Virus genome (UHGV): UHGV-0312702
DNA length: 64,000 bases
DNA from: a virus
Direction: 5' to 3' (one strand)
Shown here: positions 39,983-47,613 of the stretch, in pieces
How the letters are laid out: each line of letters starts with the position of its first letter
Position numbering within the stretch: the stretch's first letter is position 1
Made by a program: the position numbers and the translations under genes
The notes under the pieces: generated by a model
What the model was told of the DNA's origin: nothing
Databases searched by the model: none
The model's input: only the letters and a program-made list of their open reading frames with translations

Positions 39983-40183
39983 TTATTCAGAGTCTGTAGC
40001 AGTCTCTTCTTTCTTAACTTCGAACTTTGCATCAACAGCATCAAGAAGTTCATCCATAGATGCTTCTTTGATATCGATACCAGTGGCTACAGATAGTCTG
40101 TCTGCAATTGCCATGATAGTATTCTGCATAAACTCTAACTTCTTGTTAGCTTCATAAAGTTCTTTATAAACGGTCTCGCTCAT
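39983..40183 (-). CDS. hypothetical small protein
   Basis: 66 aa acidic ORF upstream of terminase. Confidence 0.4.
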   Translation of the reverse strand: MSETVYKELYEANKKLEFMQNTIMAIADRLSVATGIDIKEASMDELLDAVDAKFEVKKEETATDSE

Positions 40184-40215
40184 TATGTTTTCTCCAAATA
40201 ATTAATTTTGTTTCT

Positions 40216-40256
40216 CCTTAAAAAAGACGGCACAGAGACCGTCAAGGAGAAACCAC
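40216..40256 (-). terminator. palindromic hairpin with T-tract, putative terminator/attenuator
   Basis: TTCTCCTT...GACGG-cacagaga-CCGTC...AAGGAGAA; minus strand reads hairpin + TTTTTT. Confidence 0.4.
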
Positions 40257-40405
40257 AATGTACGTCAGAGACATACTGTATAAGGCTTCTTATAAAGTAT
40301 AACTCTGTAAAAAAGCCCTGTCTAAAAATACTCTTCGGTAGCGAAAGGAAGAATACTTATAGCAGGGCATTATTATTATTTTAATTGAGAGAGAGTAAAA
40401 TAACT

Positions 40406-40481
40406 TGGAGAATCCGAAGGGACTCGAACCCTTATAAACCTGTTTTGCAGACAGGCACATAGCCATTTCTGTCACGGATTC
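40406..40481 (-). tRNA. tRNA-Cys (anticodon GCA)
   Basis: manual fold: acceptor GAATCCG/CGGATTC, T-loop GGTTCGAGTCC, loop CTGCAAA, CCA encoded. Confidence 0.65.
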
Positions 40482-40485
40482 AAAT

Positions 40486-40578
40486 TGGAGGAAGATACCA
40501 GACTTGAACTGGTACACCGATTTCTCAGCTACTGGCAGTTTAGCAAACTGCTCCCTTACCTTTTAGGGTTAATCTTCC
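40486..40578 (-). tRNA. tRNA-Ser (anticodon GCU), long variable arm
   Basis: 93 nt; acceptor GGAAGAT/ATCTTCC; anticodon loop TTGCTAA. Confidence 0.65.
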
Positions 40579-40579
40579 A

Positions 40580-41314
40580 TTATTTCTGTAATGCGCTCTT
40601 CATTTCTGGTGTTGCAATAGTGTCAATCACACCAGTTTTACAAGCATCATCAAACCAGTCTGGTAAGATACCTGCTAAGAACCCATTGATATTCGTTTTA
40701 AGGTACTCTGCAATAAGGGCAGCTTCTTCTTCAATCATCTGCACAACTTCATCTGCATAAGCTGTAATCTTTGAGATACCTTCATTAATCTTACTAACAG
40801 CCTGATTAGCTAAATCAGAAACAGTATCAAGACCCTTATCAATAGCATCTTGTAAGTCACTTAATACATCATTAACGCTGTCTAGTGTATCATTAATAGC
40901 ATCAATAGCTTTTTGACCATACTCTGTAGCAACACCCATAATACCGCTGAATGGTGTACAACCAACTTGTTCTCCCGCTGCACCCATAACATTGGAATAT
41001 CCCTTTGCTACCTGCATACGTGATGAAAACTCGTCAATAGACTTTTGACCGTAGTCTGTTAGGGTCTTAGTAGTTGCTGTAGTGCTTGTCAGACTCGTTG
41101 TAAAGCTGTTTAGAAGGACTGTTGTAAGTCCAGCAGCAACAAGTTTTTCCTTCATTGCAGGGTCTGTTACAGAGCTAATAGAGCTTACAAGTGATGTAGA
41201 GGCAGCTACGGTTCCACCTAGAACTGCTGCACCAGTAATAAGGGGGTTAGAAAACCCTTTACCAGTTTTTAAGAGATTAAAAATCTCCTTACCTTGTCCT
41301 GTCATCTCTTTCAT
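40580..41314 (-). CDS. hypothetical protein inside tRNA cluster
   Basis: start set at ATG 41314 with RBS AAAGGTG; track start 41377 runs through tRNA-Phe. Confidence 0.45.
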   Translation of the reverse strand: MKEMTGQGKEIFNLLKTGKGFSNPLITGAAVLGGTVAASTSLVSSISSVTDPAMKEKLVAAGLTTVLLNSFTTSLTSTTATTKTLTDYGQKSIDEFSSRMQVAKGYSNVMGAAGEQVGCTPFSGIMGVATEYGQKAIDAINDTLDSVNDVLSDLQDAIDKGLDTVSDLANQAVSKINEGISKITAYADEVVQMIEEEAALIAEYLKTNINGFLAGILPDWFDDACKTGVIDTIATPEMKSALQK

Positions 41315-41330
41315 TAAGCACCTTTGAAAT

Positions 41331-41407
41331 TGGTAGTCCAGTGGGATTTGAACCCTCTTCTCATGTTTTTCAGACACGCGCTTTAACCATATAAGCTACT
41401 TGGACTA
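41331..41407 (-). tRNA. tRNA-Phe (anticodon GAA)
   Basis: acceptor TAGTCCA/TGGACTA; loop CTGAAAA; T-loop GGTTCAAATCC. Confidence 0.65.
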
Positions 41408-41412
41408 TAAAT

Positions 41413-41489
41413 TGGGGTGACCTACGGGATTTGAACCCGTATAGACCATGTTCACAGCATGGGTCATTACCATTTATGATAAGGCCACA
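41413..41489 (-). tRNA. tRNA-His (anticodon GUG)
   Basis: loop CTGTGAA, discriminator C. Confidence 0.6.
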
Positions 41490-41519
41490 TTTAAGGACTC
41501 TCGTAAGAACCCTTAGAAG

Positions 41520-41595
41520 TGGCAGCGGCATAAGGATTTGAACCTTAATAGGACAGCTTCAGAGACTGTTGCATTGCCAGTTATGCTATACCGCT
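41520..41595 (-). tRNA. tRNA-Gln (anticodon CUG)
   Basis: loop CTCTGAA, discriminator G. Confidence 0.6.
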
Positions 41596-41600
41596 AAATT

Positions 41601-41679
41601 TGGTACTCCATATCGGATTCGAACCGATACATAACACAGATTTTAAGTCTGGCCTCTCTGCCAATTGGAGTAATGGAGC
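41601..41679 (-). tRNA. tRNA with anticodon UAA (Leu codon UUA) but short variable loop
   Basis: loop CTTAAAA; T-arm ATCGG-TTCGAAT-CCGAT; discriminator A; no long variable arm. Confidence 0.45.
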
Positions 41680-41681
41680 AT

Positions 41682-41756
41682 TGGCGGGGGATGTTGGAAT
41701 TGAACCAACTTCTTCGATTTCAAAGACCGAGGTTTTAACCTTGTAAACTAATCCCC
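41682..41756 (-). tRNA. tRNA-Gln (anticodon UUG)
   Basis: loop CTTTGAA, discriminator G. Confidence 0.6.
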
Positions 41757-41765
41757 TTTAAATCT

Positions 41766-42323
41766 TTACTTTCTTAGTGGATGAATAAAGAATGCCAACA
41801 TAACTCTTTCCCTTGAGAATGCTCTTTCTTCTGGGACAACACTTTTAAGTTTCCACCCAACATAAATTCTCCAGTAAAATTGTTTACCAAAGACTTTAAT
41901 TGATGGGATAAAAGCAAATAATCCCCAAGCATTGCTGTTCCACATTAGGAGATAACCTGTCTGATTATCTTCAGGGTTAGAACTTACGTTGATATTACCT
42001 TTCCACTTAGTAACATCTTTTACATCTCTTCCTAACACATGGTAAGAGAAGTTATAAGCTTTGTTTCTCCAGAGCCATCCAACTCTCTGCATATAAACAC
42101 CGAGCTTACCAATCTTTCTAATCTTAGCCCATCGTTTGATATGACCTGCATCACCATCAATTGGGTTGTCATAAGTCTCCATCCATCTGAAACCAAAAGG
42201 CAGATGACCTTTCTTCTCACTGTAGAATGGGACTACGAAAGGTGCTAAGATAACTGCCAAGATTGCTGCAAATGGCTCTAACAAAGCTAAGAAAATCCAT
42301 GAAGCATACTTCAAATATCTCAT
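41766..42323 (-). CDS. membrane protein
   Basis: hydrophobic N-terminus WIFLALLEPFAAILAVILAPFVVPF. Confidence 0.5.
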   Translation of the reverse strand: MRYLKYASWIFLALLEPFAAILAVILAPFVVPFYSEKKGHLPFGFRWMETYDNPIDGDAGHIKRWAKIRKIGKLGVYMQRVGWLWRNKAYNFSYHVLGRDVKDVTKWKGNINVSSNPEDNQTGYLLMWNSNAWGLFAFIPSIKVFGKQFYWRIYVGWKLKSVVPEERAFSRERVMLAFFIHPLRK

Positions 42324-42562
42324 TGTCTAATCCTAGTAAGGAGGTAAACATTATTATTTGTTTCTGAGTTTTCTGGTAAAGCTGTCTCAAAATTGACGCT
42401 TTTAAATTGTCTCCCACCAAAGTAATGACCAATAAATTTTTGTACTTTTATTGGGTCACATTCCCAGCCAACTTTCAAGAAAATGTGGGTATCTATAGTG
42501 GGAACCCTTACAAACTCAATACTATTGGAATTTTCATGTTCAACGACGATTAATGTTTGCAT
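42320..42562 (-). CDS. hypothetical protein
   Basis: 80 aa coupled ORF. Confidence 0.35.
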   Translation of the reverse strand: MQTLIVVEHENSNSIEFVRVPTIDTHIFLKVGWECDPIKVQKFIGHYFGGRQFKSVNFETALPENSETNNNVYLLTRIRQ

Positions 42563-42580
42563 AAATCTCTCTTATTTATC

Positions 42581-42656
42581 TGGCGCAGGATAAGGGACTT
42601 GAACCCCTATTAACAGCTTCGTAGACTGTTGCTCTATCCATTTGAACTAATCCTGC
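42581..42656 (-). tRNA. tRNA-Arg (anticodon ACG)
   Basis: acceptor GCAGGAT/ATCCTGC; loop CTACGAA. Confidence 0.65.
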
Positions 42657-42661
42657 AAAAT

Positions 42662-42739
42662 TGGTGTTCCAAGACGGATTCGAACCGTCACTAGTACAAG
42701 GTTTGAGCTTGCATCCTCTGCCAATTGGGATACTGGAAC
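42662..42739 (-). tRNA. tRNA with anticodon CAA (Leu codon UUG) but short variable loop
   Basis: loop CTCAAAC; T-arm GACGG-TTCGAAT-CCGTC; discriminator A. Confidence 0.45.
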
Positions 42740-42740
42740 A

Positions 42741-42815
42741 TGGTACTCACTAAAGGACTTGAACCTTTTTCTTCATCTTGTAAGGGTGATGTTTTACCAT
42801 ATAAACTAAGCGAGT
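42741..42815 (-). tRNA. tRNA-Val (anticodon UAC)
   Basis: loop CTTACAA. Confidence 0.55.
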
Positions 42816-42911
42816 GTGAAAGAGGTCTGAAGTTGTGCCACTAACTCAACTCCGTGGAATTTGTTACGGTCTTCAGTTGACTCAAAGTGGTCTTTCACTT
42901 GACCTCTGAAT

Positions 42912-42987
42912 TGGTGCTCCCACAAGGATTCGAACCCTGATAAGTTGCTTACAAGGCAACCGTAATAGCCAATTATACGATAGGAGC
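42912..42987 (-). tRNA. tRNA-Thr (anticodon UGU)
   Basis: stem GTTGC/GCAAC, loop CTTGTAA. Confidence 0.65.
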
Positions 42988-42994
42988 ATTAATT

Positions 42995-43069
42995 TGGAGC
43001 ATCCAGAGGGAATCGAACCCTCAACCTCAGTTTGGAAGACTGTAATTTTCCCGTTTAAACTATGGATGC
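42995..43069 (-). tRNA. tRNA-Gly (anticodon UCC)
   Basis: acceptor GCATCCA/TGGATGC; loop CTTCCAA; discriminator U. Confidence 0.6.
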
Positions 43070-43075
43070 ACTAAT

Positions 43076-43151
43076 TGGTGGAGAAGCAGGGAATTGAACC
43101 CTGTACTTAAGTTTGCAAAACTTATGTTTTAACCATGTAAACTACATCCCC
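43076..43151 (-). tRNA. tRNA-Ala (anticodon UGC)
   Basis: G3:U70 wobble in acceptor stem; loop TTTGCAA. Confidence 0.6.
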
Positions 43152-43157
43152 AATGTT

Positions 43158-43233
43158 TGGTACAGGTGGAGGGAATTGAACCCATCGTCTTACTGATTAA
43201 GAGTCAGCCGCATAACCATTTTGCTACACCTGC
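43158..43233 (-). tRNA. tRNA-Lys (anticodon CUU)
   Basis: loop CTCTTAA. Confidence 0.55.
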
Positions 43234-43240
43234 ATTAATT

Positions 43241-43316
43241 TGGTACACCTAGAGAGATTCGAACTCACACTGAGCAGATTCTAAGTCTGCTGCCTCTACC
43301 AGTTGGGCTATAGGTG
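43241..43316 (-). tRNA. tRNA with anticodon UAG (Leu codon CUA) but short variable loop
   Basis: 6-bp anticodon stem AGCAGA/TCTGCT; loop CTTAGAA; discriminator A. Confidence 0.45.
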
Positions 43317-43563
43317 CATTAAATCTTTTTAGAGAACTTCTAAGAACCTAAGCAACAAGGTTCCACAACAAGCTGTAATAACCTTAGAAGCCCTCTAAAA
43401 AGACCTAAAAAGGTCTTTGCATAGTCTTGTTTAATCCGGTGACTAGAACCTTTGGAGAGCTTGATATTATCTCTTCTCCGTGACACCTACTAGGTGCTTT
43501 ACTGTGCGTGTACGACAATACACGAGGGATACCAAAGCAACATCCGAATGAAGCTTGGCTTTA

Positions 43564-43653
43564 AATCTTATTAGGCGGTAAGTAAAGGAGTCGAACCCTC
43601 ACCGTATCTCTACAGTGGCAACTGTTTTCAAGACAGTTTGGCTACCATTAGCC
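43564..43653 (-). tRNA. tRNA-Ser (anticodon UGA), long variable arm
   Basis: acceptor GGTAGGT/ACTTACC; loop CTTGAAA; discriminator G; CC but no terminal A encoded. Confidence 0.55.
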
Positions 43654-43676
43654 GCTACCTACCCCTAATAAGACTT

Positions 43677-43759
43677 TGGCATGGGACGGAGGAGTTGAAC
43701 CCCTTTGAAACGGTTTTGGAGGCCGTTGCTCATGCCTTAGAGTCTTAACATCGTCCCAC
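43677..43759 (-). tRNA. atypical tRNA-like gene, candidate tRNA-Trp (anticodon CCA)
   Basis: acceptor GTGGGAC/GTCCCAT; loop CTCCAAA; about 7 extra nt in D-arm region. Confidence 0.4.
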
Positions 43760-43901
43760 ACTATAATTCGAAACTTACCGTATTATCTCAACACTGTAAA
43801 GCCCCTTCTCAGATTATTTACATGTTCTGGAAAACATGAGATACAGACCACCTCCCTACAGGAAGACCCGCTTAGGTCGTCTAAGTAATCTGCTAACTAA
43901 T

Positions 43902-43978
43902 TGGCACACCCTACAGGATTCGAACCTGTAACTAACGATTTAGAAGACCGTTGCTCTATCCAATTGAACTAAGGGTGC
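43902..43978 (-). tRNA. tRNA-Arg (anticodon UCU)
   Basis: acceptor GCACCCT/AGGGTGT; loop CTTCTAA. Confidence 0.65.
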
Positions 43979-44271
43979 ATTAATCTTTAAAGACTCTCTT
44001 AGAAAGCCCTTAAAGATGCCCACCTTATTAATCATACCGTGGGCTAGTACGCCAAATTCTTTGATGAGGGATTGGAAGACCTCACTGGTGTTTAGCCTAT
44101 CAAGCTACTGCCAGAAAAACATTGTCGTTTGCATTTATTTTAAATTTGCAAAATAGACGCTACGCAACGAAAACTATTCAGAATATGTACAACAAATTTC
44201 CCCACATTGTGTTACGTCTAACGCTCATGTATTGGTGTTTGAATTATACATATTATGAATTATTTTTAGTT

Positions 44272-44300
44272 ACTATAAAGTAGTCACATCTCAATGTCAA
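44272..44300 (-). promoter_or_regulatory. strong sigma70-like promoter inside tRNA cluster
   Basis: minus strand TTGACA (44295-44300), 17-nt spacer, TATAGT (44272-44277). Confidence 0.55.
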
Positions 44301-44315
44301 CAACTTTATTGAAAT

Positions 44316-44390
44316 TGGTTGTAGGTGAGGGTATCGAACCCTCTTCTAACGGTTATCAGCCGTTTGCATTACCATTTATGCTAACCCACA
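44316..44390 (-). tRNA. tRNA-Ile (anticodon GAU)
   Basis: loop CTGATAA. Confidence 0.6.
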
Positions 44391-44392
44391 AT

Positions 44393-44469
44393 TGGAGGTT
44401 CAGGTGGGAATCGAACCCACATTCATAGGGCTTATGAAACCCCTGCATTACCTTATCTGCGACTGAACC
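44393..44469 (-). tRNA. tRNA-Met (anticodon CAU)
   Basis: loop TTCATAA; G-C-rich anticodon stem. Confidence 0.55.
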
Positions 44470-44473
44470 ATAT

Positions 44474-44549
44474 TGGTAGAAGTGGAGGGATTCGAACCCA
44501 TCGCCTGTCAGATTAAAAGTCTGCCGCATCACCATTCTGCTACACTTCC
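44474..44549 (-). tRNA. tRNA-Lys (anticodon UUU)
   Basis: loop CTTTTAA. Confidence 0.55.
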
Positions 44550-44698
44550 ATTAAATTATCTTTGTAGATAAGCTACCCAGACTTGCTTAAGGTCTGTAGC
44601 GATGTGCCTTGTTGGGTTTAAATCTAGAATTTACCCTTTCACCCTTTGTGGTCGCATACTCACAGGTAAGCTTAATAGCTCACCTACAAAGATAATTA

Positions 44699-44830
44699 CC
44701 AGACCGTTGTTTATCATCTTAAGTGCTACCATTACACCAACTCGACATCTGCCGAGTGAAGGAATCGAACCTTCGCCTTTTCTTTACCGGAGAAATAGAT
44801 TGTTTAAGTTTTGCTGTAAACGGTCTTCTG
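44699..44830 (-). ncRNA. candidate Y-RNA-like ncRNA E1 with tRNA-like module
   Basis: 5' box CAGAAGACC; terminal helix AGACCGTT/AACGGTCT; internal T-arm GAAGG-TTCGATT-CCTTC, acceptor-like hairpin ACTCGGC-AGAT-GTCGAGT, D-arm-like TGGTGTAATGGTAGCAC. Confidence 0.4.
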
Positions 44831-44843
44831 TAAATTTGTTGAG

Positions 44844-44917
44844 CCAGACCAAGTTTTAAATTTTCAAAATTAAATTGGCTTGAAATTTCATACATTCTTG
44901 CTGAATTTGGTCTTCTG
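44844..44917 (-). ncRNA. candidate Y-RNA-like ncRNA E2
   Basis: same 5' box; terminal helix AGACCAA/TTGGTCT (covaries with E1/E3). Confidence 0.35.
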
Positions 44918-45004
44918 CTCCTTTAAAGAATACTCGCAAGAACTCTTTAAGGGAGGGGCTAAATAGCCCTCTCAAAACATCATTTTGAAATACTTATTAT
45001 AATT

Positions 45005-45082
45005 TGGCGGTTACGAAGGGATTTGAACCCTCATCATCTCCCGTGACAGGGGAGTATTTTAACCAGATTAAACTACATAACC
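45005..45082 (-). tRNA. tRNA-Asp (anticodon GUC)
   Basis: stem CTCCC/GGGAG, loop CTGTCAC, discriminator G. Confidence 0.65.
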
Positions 45083-45087
45083 TTTAT

Positions 45088-45175
45088 TGGTGTGCCGTGT
45101 AGGAGTCGAACCTACCGAGTCTCAATGACAAGGGATTTACAGTCCCCACCGCTACCATCTACGGGATAACGACAC
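45088..45175 (-). tRNA. tRNA-Tyr (anticodon GUA), long variable arm
   Basis: 88 nt; loop CTGTAAA. Confidence 0.6.
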
Positions 45176-45184
45176 ATTTTAATT

Positions 45185-45261
45185 TGGCGGTTAGTCAGGG
45201 ATTCGAACCCTGTGCCATTCGCTTAACAGGCGACCGCACATACCTTATGTGCTTCCTAACC
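45185..45261 (-). tRNA. tRNA-Asn (anticodon GUU)
   Basis: loop CTGTTAA. Confidence 0.6.
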
Positions 45262-45272
45262 TTAATACATTG

Positions 45273-45331
45273 CCAGACCGTGTTTTTCTTTTATCCGCAA
45301 AAAGTAGTTTGTTGCTGAATACGGTCTTCTG
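45273..45331 (-). ncRNA. candidate Y-RNA-like ncRNA E3
   Basis: 5' box; terminal helix AGACCGT/ACGGTCT; begins about 6 nt after a tRNA 3' end. Confidence 0.35.
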
Positions 45332-45337
45332 CAAAAT

Positions 45338-45413
45338 TGGAGGCGGGTGCAGGAGTCGAACCTGCCGATACCATGCTAATGAGACATGTGAGACGCCCTT
45401 TCTCTATACCCGC
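45338..45413 (-). tRNA. tRNA-Met (anticodon CAU), second copy
   Basis: loop CTCATTA; possible 1:72 mismatch. Confidence 0.55.
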
Positions 45414-45425
45414 AATTCTTAATGA

Positions 45426-45498
45426 CCAGACCAAATCTCTTCTTTGTCCGATTGAATGTCAGATGAATAAGATTAAATTTGCTGTAATTGGTCTTCTG
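45426..45498 (-). ncRNA. candidate Y-RNA-like ncRNA E4
   Basis: 5' box; terminal helix AGACCAA/TTGGTCT. Confidence 0.35.
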
Positions 45499-45505
45499 TC
45501 AAAAC

Positions 45506-45580
45506 TGGTGTCGTAGACAGGATTCGAACCTGCGAGCAACTGATTGAAGGTCAGGTGGCTAACCATTTGCCTTCTACGAC
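45506..45580 (-). tRNA. tRNA-Glu (anticodon UUC)
   Basis: acceptor GTCGTAG/CTACGAC; loop CCTTCAA. Confidence 0.6.
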
Positions 45581-45581
45581 A

Positions 45582-45938
45582 TTAAACCATTGTAATTCCA
45601 CTATGAACCTCTCTGTGGCAATTAGCGCATAGCAAAACACATTTATCAAGTTCTTTTTTAACCTTTTCCCAAGATGCACCCATAAGTTTTGATGGTGTAT
45701 TCTCTTTTTCGTTTGGGTTAAGGTGATGCCATTCTAAAGCATTTTTACATTTATTATAGCCACAAATTATGCAACTATCGCCATAAAGCTTATATGCTTT
45801 CTCCCTATTGGCATCCTCTCTAAGTTTTGTCCTTAATGCACAACATTTTAGACAATTTACTCTATTACCGGCGTTACCATTCTTATGAATGCTATGTTCA
45901 GTTAAACCATGAACTGGACATTCTTTTAAAAATCTCAT
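45582..45938 (-). CDS. HNH endonuclease
   Basis: EWHHLNP and CANCHREVH motifs plus Cys pairs; start at ATG 45938 with RBS AAGGGG; track start 46016 runs through tRNA-Pro. Confidence 0.7.
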   Translation of the reverse strand: MRFLKECPVHGLTEHSIHKNGNAGNRVNCLKCCALRTKLREDANREKAYKLYGDSCIICGYNKCKNALEWHHLNPNEKENTPSKLMGASWEKVKKELDKCVLLCANCHREVHSGITMV

Positions 45939-45955
45939 AGTAACCCCTTTAAATT

Positions 45956-46032
45956 TGGTCTCTGTTGGAGGACTTGAACCTCCGGCCTTACCGCCCCAAA
46001 CGGAACGCTCTACCAAGCTGAGCTAAACAGAG
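45956..46032 (-). tRNA. tRNA-Pro (anticodon UGG)
   Basis: acceptor CTCTGTT/AACAGAG; loop TTTGGGG. Confidence 0.6.
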
Positions 46033-46140
46033 ATAAACTTTTCAAACTCTATGTAACCACTTTAACATTATTTTTTAGTGGTTGTCAAGAACTTTTTTAA
46101 AATATTTTTCAGTATCTTAGAAAAGCTCTCATTTCGTTTC

Positions 46141-46169
46141 TATGTAGAACATATTAAAGGGTATCAAAC
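46141..46169 (-). promoter_or_regulatory. sigma70-like promoter at head of tRNA cluster
   Basis: minus strand TTGACA (46164-46169), 17-nt spacer, TAATAT (46141-46146); embedded in AAAGGGTA/TACCCTTT hairpin. Confidence 0.5.
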
Positions 46170-46197
46170 ACATTGTCAATACCCTTTTTAAAACTTT

Positions 46198-47613
46198 TTA
46201 CCAGATGTAACGGTCAATCATTACTGCTTTGAGCATTACGCTGATTGGGTCAAACTTCTCACCACCAAGCAGGGCTTTTAAAGTGGCTGGGGAGAACCCT
46301 GATACCATTGCTACACCGTTATCCTTAACAGACACTTCGCAAGTACCACTACGGTTTGCTAAGTACCAGAATACCAGTTGTGGCATTTCGTATCCAGCTT
46401 TTTTGTACTTACTACGAATTGCTTCAAAGTTTGTACGACCATTTGCACCATCAACCTGATTGAACTCCATATCAGAGAAGATGATAAGCTTACTTGGCAT
46501 ATCTTTCTGAGTCAAGTTGTTTCTCTTGCCTGTCTCAAGAATACGGTCAAAAGCTGCTTGTAAGTTGGTTGAACCATATTCAACATGACGCATTACCTGA
46601 CGGTGACGGTTTCGTAAATCACCACTCAGTTCGATGAAATGAGGGTTTGTTGAATAAACCATTAACTCGTTCTTAAAGCAACCTGTATTGCGTTCTGCTA
46701 CATACAAGGCAAGTGATACACCAATATCGAGGGCAGTAATTGAGCCAAGATTCACCCAAGACATTGAGCTTGAAACATCAGTCATACACAAGATGTTTTC
46801 ACCTTCTGCCATCCAGTTTGGTAGTGCTTTCCACTGCTCATTAGCAACATCTGCATTACCATACTTGATAGATTTAATCACATCGTATGGATAAACAGCA
46901 CCAGCATTAATCTTAGTCTCACCCTTTGATAAGGACTCAACGTAAGCTTTGTAGCGTTCTCCATCTTTACGGTTAAATAATTTTTGGTAACGTGCAGCAG
47001 CAAGTGAAGGAATCTTACTGTAGTCAATCTTACCAAACTCATTAGCAGAGATTTTTTGTTCAACTGTATCAGATAGTGCAGACAGCAGTGTGCGGTACTC
47101 TTTCTCGCTCAAGTTTGCAAACTTACAGAAACGTTTTACAAACTGTTTGTGACGTGGTTTTACTCGTGGTAACCACTTAGCTGCTAAACCTGCTGTTGCA
47201 GGGTCTAGTAAAGCTGCTTCTAAATGTTTGAAGGCATCTGTCTCAAAACGAGTACCTACAAAGATTTTGAAGTCATCAAAGCGACCAAGCTCTGCAATCT
47301 TATCCATAATGCGAAGAACCTGTGTAGGCTCTAAAACTTTATCTTCAATCGCTTGAAGTAAAACAGTTCGGAAAGCCTTACGCTCACCCATACCTTCTCG
47401 TACATCTCGCATATGCAGTAAAATACGAACTGCAACATCAACATCCTCATGCAAAGCTTTGTAGAACAAGTCTGGTAAGATTTCTACATTGCTACGGCTA
47501 GAACCAGCAGCTTTGTAAAAGTCTACAAGAGCAGACATTGATGAAGTATGGTTTACAGCACCATTTTCAGTTCGACCTGCATGAAGGTGCGCATGTTTAA
47601 ATAATTCGCTCAT
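46198..47613 (-). CDS. Ro60/Rsr-like protein (TROVE-like N-terminus + vWA domain)
   Basis: MIDAS DVSSSM plus LGSI, GSTN...IIFSDMEF segments resembling Ro60 vWA as recalled from memory. Confidence 0.55.
   Translation of the reverse strand: MSELFKHAHLHAGRTENGAVNHTSSMSALVDFYKAAGSSRSNVEILPDLFYKALHEDVDVAVRILLHMRDVREGMGERKAFRTVLLQAIEDKVLEPTQVLRIMDKIAELGRFDDFKIFVGTRFETDAFKHLEAALLDPATAGLAAKWLPRVKPRHKQFVKRFCKFANLSEKEYRTLLSALSDTVEQKISANEFGKIDYSKIPSLAAARYQKLFNRKDGERYKAYVESLSKGETKINAGAVYPYDVIKSIKYGNADVANEQWKALPNWMAEGENILCMTDVSSSMSWVNLGSITALDIGVSLALYVAERNTGCFKNELMVYSTNPHFIELSGDLRNRHRQVMRHVEYGSTNLQAAFDRILETGKRNNLTQKDMPSKLIIFSDMEFNQVDGANGRTNFEAIRSKYKKAGYEMPQLVFWYLANRSGTCEVSVKDNGVAMVSGFSPATLKALLGGEKFDPISVMLKAVMIDRYIW

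Follow-up and report, generated by a model that had tools for sequence, protein, structure and literature searches.

The window analysed here, the whole 64,000-nucleotide stretch of the viral genome UHGV-0312702, derives from a Felix O1-like myovirus (Felixounavirus) and carries a cluster of tRNA genes on its minus strand (40406-46032; 25 tRNAs found by ARAGORN and one more by Rfam). Within this cluster, between the genes for tRNA-Ile(GAU) (44390-44316) and tRNA-Arg(UCU) (43978-43902), lies what is very probably a small-RNA gene (44265-43979, on the minus strand, as are all features of the window described below) derived from the messenger part of transfer-messenger RNA (tmRNA), without the tRNA-like domain. 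The 1.3 kb around it is 80-99% identical to 305 phage records. We propose that the RNA serves as an alternative template for the peptide tag added to the products of rescued ribosomes. This proposed function is tentative, and when it is joined to the identity of the RNA in a single explanation, our compromise estimate for the whole falls a little short of even.

The resemblance to tmRNA is most evident in the reading frame. An A-rich tract, AAAAUAAAU (44133-44141), which aligns to the Rfam tmRNA consensus AAAAAAUAAuU followed by GCaAAC, leads without a start codon into ten codons, GCA AAC GAC AAU GUU UUU CUG GCA GUA GCU (44103-44132), that would encode ANDNVFLAVA and are closed by the tandem stops UGA UAG (44097-44102). 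The counterpart in Escherichia coli tmRNA is AAAAAAUAGUC GCA AAC GAC GAA AAC UAC GCU UUA GCA GCU UAA UAA, for ANDENYALAA. The original prediction, which suggested a small RNA or a structured leader at this site, had proposed an Rfam search as one check. At gathering thresholds, Rfam 15 returned only tRNAs in the window and no family in 43979-44300. In permissive scans, the only notable non-tRNA matches were to tmRNA models, all on this region: RF00023 (tmRNA) at 15.2 bits (E = 3.6e-4 in a 501-nt search) and RF04321 (permuted tmRNA) at 22.7 bits, each against a gathering score of 47, with both alignments strongest at the resume region AAAAUAAAU-GCAAACGACAAUGUUU. On the related phage Moogle, ARAGORN reports a permuted "tmRNA*" with the same tag, ANDNVFLAVA, and both stops.

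Relatives of the element were collected with a tag-spanning pattern, GCAAACGA-N10-CTGGCAGTAGC, in which codons 1-3 and 7-10 serve as fixed anchors. The tag frame has 10 codons in 124 of the 126 loci defined in this way. Relatives have UAA, UAG or UGA at the codon where the window has its first stop. Eleven 10-codon tags fit AN[DE][NEDT]x[YF]LAVA, and synonymous third-base changes are present in the alignments. Searches with other anchor spacings gave six matches, all of them unrelated coding sequences, and no family member with a different frame length. A harvest that was independent of the tag, made via the second pseudoknot, added the tags ANDDVVLMAA, ANDDAVLMAA, ANSDQYLAVA and ANDSEMRVAA; all members found in this manner have 10 codons and a stop within the hairpin loop, with the hairpin rebuilt by compensatory changes.

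The order of the elements, from A-rich tract through frame and stop-bearing hairpin to pseudoknots, is the same as in tmRNA. The last tag codons and the stops fall in an H5-like hairpin, CUGG-CAG-UAGC-UUGAUAG-GCUA-AACA-CCAG (44085-44114), with the stops in its loop. This is followed by a PK2-like pseudoknot (44052-44084), in which stem 1 is UGAGG/CCUCA and the loop CCAA pairs with a downstream UUGG, and by a PK3-like pseudoknot (44018-44051), with stem 1 CGUAC/GUAUG, stem 2 GCCCAC/GUGGGC and a conserved loop, AUUAAUAA. Stem 2 of the PK3-like pseudoknot is the inverted repeat that had been noticed originally; the repeat is real (44044-44039 and 44023-44018), with a spacing of 15 nt rather than the 17 nt reported. 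Base pairing was counted over 28 distinct sequences (alignment A4) for the hairpin, the PK2-like stems and PK3-like stem 1. In these helices 98.1% of cells pair, versus 35-39% when the partners are slid; seven pairs change on both sides, and in 500 shuffles no covariation score was as high as the one observed.

Four of the five counted helices are fully paired across lineages. In the H5-like hairpin, pairing is complete (100% of cells) in the outer helix and reaches 89% in the inner one, and in members with LMAA-type tags CUGG/CCAG has become CUGA/UCAG and UAGC/GCUA has become GGCU/AGCC. Both PK2-like stems are 100% paired, with double-sided changes at three pairs of stem 1 and two pairs of stem 2 (the latter in the variants CCAA/UUGG, CCGA/UCGG and CCAG/CUGG). 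PK3-like stem 1 pairs in 100% of cells as CGCAC/GUGUG, CGUAC/GUAUG, CGCAU/AUGUG or CGCAG/CUGUG. PK3-like stem 2 was left out of the count because of indels; by eye, it shows compensation between GCCC/GGGC and CCCUGA/UCAGGG. By count, covariation is found in three of the four pseudoknot stems, and a third downstream pseudoknot is absent in the window version. Where PK1 would be, between the tRNA-like domain and the resume codon of tmRNA, the family seems to have a nested hairpin, CUUUG...CAAAG (compensated to UUAUG...CAUAA in members L163, L218 and L231), with no pseudoknot evident by eye; the window's version differs from it here.

Around this core, 5´ and 3´ modules come and go, and the Felixounavirus version is the shortest in the family. 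An optional 5´ hairpin domain (44182-44254), with the closing stem AAUAUGUAUAA/UUGUACAUAUU and a tip hairpin with a GACG loop (44224-44209), lies between the promoter and a conserved 5´ motif, UAGUUUUCGU (44167-44176), in the window and in the 92 records with a query coverage of 80% or more. The domain is absent in Moogle and, judging by the coverage pattern among the matches listed (~73%, in two pieces), in many other Felixounavirus relatives; in relatives without it, the RNA would start at the 5´ motif. The Chaseviridae phage SKA49 has the domain with seven pairs changed on both sides, in a comparison of only four sequences. At the other end, the window has a terminal hairpin, AUCUUUAAGGGCUUUCUAAGAGAGUCUUUAAAGAU (43983-44017), and then UAAU, directly before tRNA-Arg; in Moogle-type relatives a different helix module takes this place. 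In other lineages the 3´ part is much longer and is organized about a covarying helix, CACAACAGGUAAGAGCAUU ... AGUGCUCUUUCCGUUGUGG, into which variable sequences are inserted. This long helix recurs in the long family members L009, L022, L004, L002 and L003, in one to three copies per RNA and before or after the tag module, and it is fully compensated in Cyrano-like phages (GUUGAGGCC/GGCCUCAAC). The inserts at its tip vary, some containing a T arm (GGGUUCGAAUCCC); Moogle has one copy of the helix and the window version none.

The RNA is probably transcribed from its own sigma-70-type promoter. The near-consensus promoter that had been placed just downstream of tRNA-Ile (44272-44300) held up on examination: its -35 hexamer TTGACA (44295-44300), identical in Moogle and other Felixounavirus loci, and its -10 hexamer TATAGT (44272-44277), 17 nt apart, score 11 out of 12, the best match across the 7 kb of 40000-47000, and are kept in relatives. 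The total number of promoter-like sites in this interval is not above that in shuffles. From the promoter spacing, transcription would start near 44265. A sigma-70-type promoter also stands directly 5´ of the conserved motif, there (A/U)AGUUUUCGU, in Moogle, Aeromonas phage pIS4-A, Cyrano-like phages and others, and under a strict 9-of-12 test 39 of 125 loci, spread over four lineages, have one upstream of the motif. In lambdoid prophages, the module follows the late terminator instead of a promoter of its own.

Behind the window's promoter, as first reported, there are ~290 nt with short open reading frames only: 44271-43979 has no plausible protein gene, and the 16-codon ATG frame that starts at 44228 (MSVRRNTMWGNLLYIF) falls within the optional 5´ hairpin domain. 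Structure prediction, also suggested at the outset, gave a fold for the putative 287-nt transcript far better than those of shuffles (-80.7 kcal/mol; z = -5.7; 0 of 200 as good). A tRNA gene directly adjoins the element in the window, in pIS4-A and in VLCpiS10a, which makes an RNase P cut the likely route of 3´ maturation: cleavage at the 5´ end of tRNA-Arg(UCU) would free the 3´ end of the RNA while excising the tRNA.

The module is widespread among phages. BLAST with 44315-43979 finds at least 615 phage records, and in the cross-family matches listed, 44141-44017 is 72-87% identical with differing flanks. These matches include Ackermannviridae (~157 kb), Klebsiella and Escherichia siphoviruses (46-60 kb), pIS4-A, and Cyrano (108 kb), for which the alignment covers 44174-44078. 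The module is also present in Felix O1 and the P22-like phage HK620, and the 5´ part matches SKA49. The ~108-kb contigs are Cyrano/GArcari-like rather than T5-like, according to a phage-database search that does not list T5. The tag-spanning pattern occurs in at least 120 IMG/VR contigs and in 7 of 185,579 species-representative genomes, three of them enteric (probably prophages) and four non-enteric, which we take as chance matches. Complete E. coli genomes carry the module in 139 of 5426 cases; the single example that was inspected belongs to a lambdoid prophage, where the module occupies an unannotated gap with the Q antiterminator gene on one side and the holin gene on the other. In viral contigs with the lambdoid arrangement it comes directly after the late terminator. 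Outside prophages, the module is essentially absent from bacterial chromosomes. It is a portable module that horizontal transfer has carried into unrelated enterobacterial and Aeromonas phages.

We trained a covariance model on 29 members of the family. The members searched with it, among them the Cyrano-like and SKA49 lineages outside the training set, reach 58-149 bits, and the window has a single strong match (132.5 bits, 44146-44014). On E. coli ssrA, the model finds only the resume region (16.5 bits, E = 7e-4 within the locus). E-values of this model are rough, and the patterns used to harvest the family fix part of the sequence. Current phage annotation pipelines overlook the gene, except in a few genomes where it is labelled, wrongly, as a complete tmRNA. 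Under the cross-family matches, there is no annotation or "hypothetical protein", and in one case "promoter". The published traces we found are mentions of "ssrA" in the genome announcements of Moogle and Mushroom only, which come from ARAGORN (PMC4319497, PMC4392139). In the part of the literature that we covered, there is no other description of the tag sequences, of phage tmRNA-like RNAs or of tmRNA fragments of this family.

Set beside bacterial tmRNA (SsrA, RF00023), the phage RNA shares the A-rich tract, the GCA resume codon without a start codon, a 10-codon tag beginning AND, stops in the loop of the H5 hairpin, the H-type pseudoknots that follow, and sequence similarity to the E. coli ssrA resume region. 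It differs in having no acceptor stem, CCA end, T arm or G3:U70, and it is because of these absences that the RNA is not chargeable as it stands. It further differs in having what seems to be a hairpin at the PK1 position, in having only two pseudoknots followed by a hairpin and a tRNA gene, and in residing on phages rather than on a bacterial chromosome. Phages that carry all or part of a tmRNA are known: a curated survey of RefSeq viruses found ssrA only in mycobacteriophages, and Bacillus phage G and DS6A are mentioned there from beyond the dataset (PMC4131195). The genes of the mycobacteriophage Bxz1 group and of Bacillus phage G are complete and found by standard tools, whereas the present family, in phages of enteric bacteria, keeps the messenger half; in mycobacteriophage DS6A it is the other half that is retained, with hardly anything beyond the tRNA-like domain, and tmRNA is inhibited by a similar molecule, which may titrate SmpB (PMC4131195).

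Several observations weigh against the explanation we propose, and most concern the missing tRNA-like domain and whatever might replace it. The Rfam tmRNA scores are all far below the gathering score. The conservation of the tag is only partly independent evidence, because codons 1-3 and 7-10 were set by the search pattern, and the retention of a stop codon counts, given transition bias, as no more than weak evidence that the frame is decoded. ARAGORN finds no tmRNA in the window, nor does it within -500/+700 nt of the 126 loci, its one call across all loci examined being the permuted one in Moogle-type loci. Orphan T arms near the module are absent or inconsistent in position. The single non-tRNA T arm in the window, at 44774, is 0.5 kb upstream, within a permuted tRNA-like element that has no G3:U70 and no meaningful complementarity to the tmRNA-like RNA, and that occurs only in Ounavirinae of E. 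coli, Salmonella, Shigella and Citrobacter (252 records). A tblastn search with E. coli SmpB gave no homologue in the window or in any fetched locus. Finally, we know of no tmRNA that works with its messenger part untethered from its tRNA-like domain.

With these points in view, we suggest, as a possibility that we hold below even but above its competitors, that the module would work through the host trans-translation machinery as an alternative tag template. Rescued ribosomes would then add a phage-specified tag (AN..LAVA) instead of the host ANDENYALAA, while the alanine-accepting, SmpB-binding function would be supplied by a separate molecule. C-terminal -LVA tags are potent ClpXP degrons; -AVA is not reported there (bioRxiv 10.1101/2024.01.29.576913). 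The competitor that survives best, which we consider possible at a lower probability, is a decoy: the RNA would mimic the messenger and pseudoknot region of host tmRNA and soak up a host factor that may bind there, such as ribosomal protein S1, RNase R or, at secondary sites, SmpB, so that host trans-translation or translation is damped or retuned, and the frame would never be decoded. A self-contained module with neither a tRNA-like domain nor a phage SmpB suits a binder better than a substrate, the module moves freely between unrelated phages, and what is most conserved in it is nucleotide sequence, in the A-rich/resume tract and in the loops of the pseudoknots; DS6A offers a converse precedent (PMC4131195). 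Yet a decoy has no need of an exact 10-codon frame closed at codon 11 by any of the three stops, and tag-like C-termini (LAVA, LMAA, RVAA) are preserved while the hairpin sequence changes around them. We favour the tag template over the decoy and lean towards a decoded frame, because the constraints on frame, stop and tag-like end match the recognition pattern of real tmRNA tags, a match that falls short of proof.

A search for the acceptor partner that the tag-template explanation calls for, both by complementarity and by an orphan T arm with NCCA, found nothing consistent. One published model would supply it from the same locus. According to ARAGORN, Moogle-type genomes carry a permuted tmRNA (669-1417) whose tag is ANDNVFLAVA and whose acceptor piece corresponds to the element at 44807-44720 in the window, which runs from the T arm through the 3´ acceptor strand and a loop to the 5´ acceptor strand. 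Genome announcements repeat the call for Moogle and Felix O1 (PMC4319497, PMC4392139). Two-piece permuted tmRNAs (RF04321, RF01849, RF01850) are known from alphaproteobacteria and some cyanobacteria and betaproteobacteria; in a true one, the 5´ acceptor strand forms the beginning of the coding piece, and an acceptor piece made from the same precursor is extensively base-paired to it. The present RNA is like them in that its messenger part would be a separate RNA, and the permuted models are the best of its Rfam matches, still weak at 22.7 bits. In addition, the Moogle acceptor hairpin contains GCCA, and its stem is compensated relative to that of the window.

Despite these likenesses, we do not accept the ARAGORN gene model and regard it as unlikely. 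Three complete tRNA genes (Lys, Met and Ile) and a strong promoter lie inside the proposed gene. An RNA starting with its 5´ acceptor strand would be severed at tRNA-Lys and so stay separate from the tag frame, and the phage RNA instead appears to start at GUUUUCG from its own promoter, with no complementary acceptor RNA found. When the permuted element and the tag RNA were compared, the longest complements were 8-10 nt, which is chance level. G3:U70 is absent in the permuted element (C3-G70 in the window, A3-U70 in Moogle) as in both neighbouring tRNAs (tRNA-Ile U3-A70, tRNA-Arg A3-U70), a tRNA-like gene with G3:U70 being present only in sister phages, and the window copy of the element has no encoded CCA and is not called by ARAGORN. 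BLAST with the element, which is confined to Ounavirinae, gave no match in Erwinia relatives or in the other families of phages bearing the module, and the RefSeq virus survey had ssrA only in mycobacteriophages (PMC4131195). Two further ideas were rejected. The RF04321 alignment places UGUGGGG against the tRNA-Ile 5´ strand UGUGGGU, as though tRNA-Ile were the acceptor piece; this segment belongs to the optional 5´ hairpin, which covaries on its own and which Moogle and, going by coverage, many other relatives lack. The spacer 44740-44550, behind the permuted element, was considered as a degenerate copy of the messenger module, and its local alignments are not above shuffles.

Several tRNA-shaped elements were encountered during these searches. 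The permuted element of the window (44700-44830) consists of an anticodon-arm-like hairpin, UUUCU-CCGGUAA-AGAAA, a T arm, GAAGG-UUCGAUU-CCUUC, a 3´ acceptor strand ACUCGGC, a loop AGAU, a 5´ acceptor strand GUCGAGU and a D arm, enclosed by AGACCGU/ACGGUCU; the Moogle element has GCCA and AACA in the loop and the compensated stem ACCCUUC/GAAGGGU. In sister Felixounaviruses (L020, L023, L032, L054, L080 and three others), tRNA-Arg(UCU) is replaced by a tRNA-like gene without a D arm that ARAGORN misses. This gene has the anticodon loop CUUCUAA, a long variable region, the acceptor stem CGGGGCG/CGCCUCG with G3:U70, A73 and an encoded CCA, that is, alanine identity elements on a UCU anticodon; in L023 it lies ~+160 to +245 nt from the resume codon. 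In the Ackermannviridae L001 (~1238-1307) and L101, a mini tRNA-like gene is located ~210 nt upstream of the tmRNA-like RNA, in more than 2 kb without an annotated gene. It has an acceptor stem, a D arm, a T arm, a 4-bp stub for the anticodon arm and no encoded CCA, and the two copies differ by the compensatory changes C3-G70/U3-G70 and A6-U67/G6-C67.

The 5´ motif raises a different possibility. It is the most conserved element 5´ of the resume region, GUUUUCG being kept in nearly all family groups with one base different in a few sequences, and the window's UAGUUUUCGU is a perfect complement of nt 97-106 of E. coli ssrA (ACGAAAACUA), within tag codons 3-6. The RNA could therefore act as an antisense to host ssrA, pairing with GAC GAA AAC UAC and blocking or cleaving the host tmRNA, or tethering the phage module to it. 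Because an RNA duplex-energy scan against E. coli ssrA, the only host ssrA used, gave long, meaningless global duplexes and was uninformative, we replaced it with a test of the longest perfect complement. In 8 of the 9 members tested, this is the motif against nt 96-107, with lineages keeping different parts of one 12-nt ssrA complement; the ancestral form of the motif would be GUAGUUUUCGUC. The matches are short, however, at 7-10 nt; a match equal to or longer than the 10-mer arises in 5-9.5% of shuffles of each RNA, 8-mers are not significant, and the lineages share ancestry and so are not independent. Equally, the motif could correspond to the D-loop analogue of tmRNA, GGAUUCGAC, or be a site for RNase E. 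For these reasons, we consider an antisense or docking role of the motif improbable. A version that combines it with the tag template, in which a decoded messenger-only module would dock via the motif on host alanyl-tmRNA-SmpB, so that ANDENYALAA is swapped or host tagging is shut off, seems to us scarcely more probable.

The original prediction allowed for a small RNA or for a structured leader that controls expression of the downstream tRNAs. Its reading of a promoter-driven, structured RNA stands, given the conserved promoter, the stability of the fold and the covarying helices, whereas its generic small RNA or leader gives way to a portable core with the layout of the tmRNA messenger part. 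We nevertheless weighed a transcribed spacer or leader, in which the promoter would drive tRNA-Arg and the tRNAs downstream and the 290 nt would be no more than processing hairpins. No terminator-like site lies between the promoter and tRNA-Arg, so the promoter probably drives this tRNA as well, and tRNAs abut the element in several phages. The resemblance claimed between the 30 nt before tRNA-Arg(UCU) and those before tRNA-Leu(UAG) was borne out, with an alignment score of 9, where 1000 shuffles reach 7 at most, and no other pair of the window's 25 tRNA leaders matches as well; leaders made of a hairpin plus AAAGAUUUAAU precede both genes, the 3´ part of the terminal hairpin resembling the tRNA-Leu(UAG) leader. 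Yet the core is 72-87% identical across unrelated families with differing flanks, its pseudoknots covary, and the same module occurs with no tRNA nearby or downstream in lambdoid prophages, between Q and holin, and in Ackermannviridae. Nothing in the analysis pointed to a regulatory role of the RNA over tRNAs, and we judge the leader to be very unlikely. Least likely of all is a functionless relic of a phage tmRNA gene that was once complete and is now decaying, for although the tRNA-like domain is missing and the short Felixounavirus version and the variable 5´ and 3´ modules would suit decay, compensatory changes keep most of the counted helices fully paired, the frame length never varies, dedicated promoters are maintained and the module is retained in at least 615 phage genomes of several families. 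Covariation, cross-family conservation and occurrence without tRNAs thus speak against both the plain tRNA leader and the dead relic.

Other features of the cluster deserve mention. Phage tRNA clusters are known to encode stable RNAs that are not tRNAs, such as species 1 and 2, RNAs C and D, of phage T4, which have no known likeness to tmRNA; the gene described here resembles them as a stable RNA gene among tRNA genes that is probably matured by tRNA-processing enzymes. A second noncoding spacer, of 256 nt (43318-43573), has a long hairpin (~43412-43318) directly before tRNA-Leu(UAG). The likeness of the last 30 nt, together with the fact that tRNA-Arg(UCU) and tRNA-Leu(UAG) both begin GCACC with G1-U72, suggests a duplicated leader-plus-tRNA unit. 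ARAGORN missed two tRNA genes (43683-43757 and 45509-45580), one of them tRNA-Trp(CCA)-like, with an enlarged D region and a weak Rfam tRNA-Sec match (23 bits), and the other with an Rfam tRNA match of 55.4 bits. An open reading frame for an HNH endonuclease (45582-46016; weak Pfam HNH match) lies in the cluster beside tRNA-Pro, as would be expected for a homing endonuclease. Just upstream of the cluster, 46198-47613 encodes a 471-aa protein with DUF2828 and DUF7788 domains, an architecture that resembles that of Ro60 (TROVE plus vWA), the partner of tRNA-like Y RNAs. A link between the protein and the permuted tRNA-shaped element is possible; the Rfam YrlA model has no match at the element.

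tmRNA is defined by transfer and messenger functions in one particle, and a messenger-only relative is undescribed in the literature that we searched. The module is common to Felix O1-type, ViI-type, Chaseviridae, Cyrano-like and lambdoid/P22-like phages and to Klebsiella and Aeromonas siphoviruses, and from this broad distribution we infer that some function bearing on ribosome rescue in infected cells is strongly selected. Should the RNA prove to be decoded, our understanding of how stalled ribosomes receive a template would have to be revised, and should it do so by docking on the host tmRNA, this would be the first example of a virus reprogramming trans-translation in trans. If it is instead a decoy or an antisense RNA, it would represent a new class of phage counter-measure against host quality control. 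The phages that carry it are easy to grow, which makes the question directly testable.

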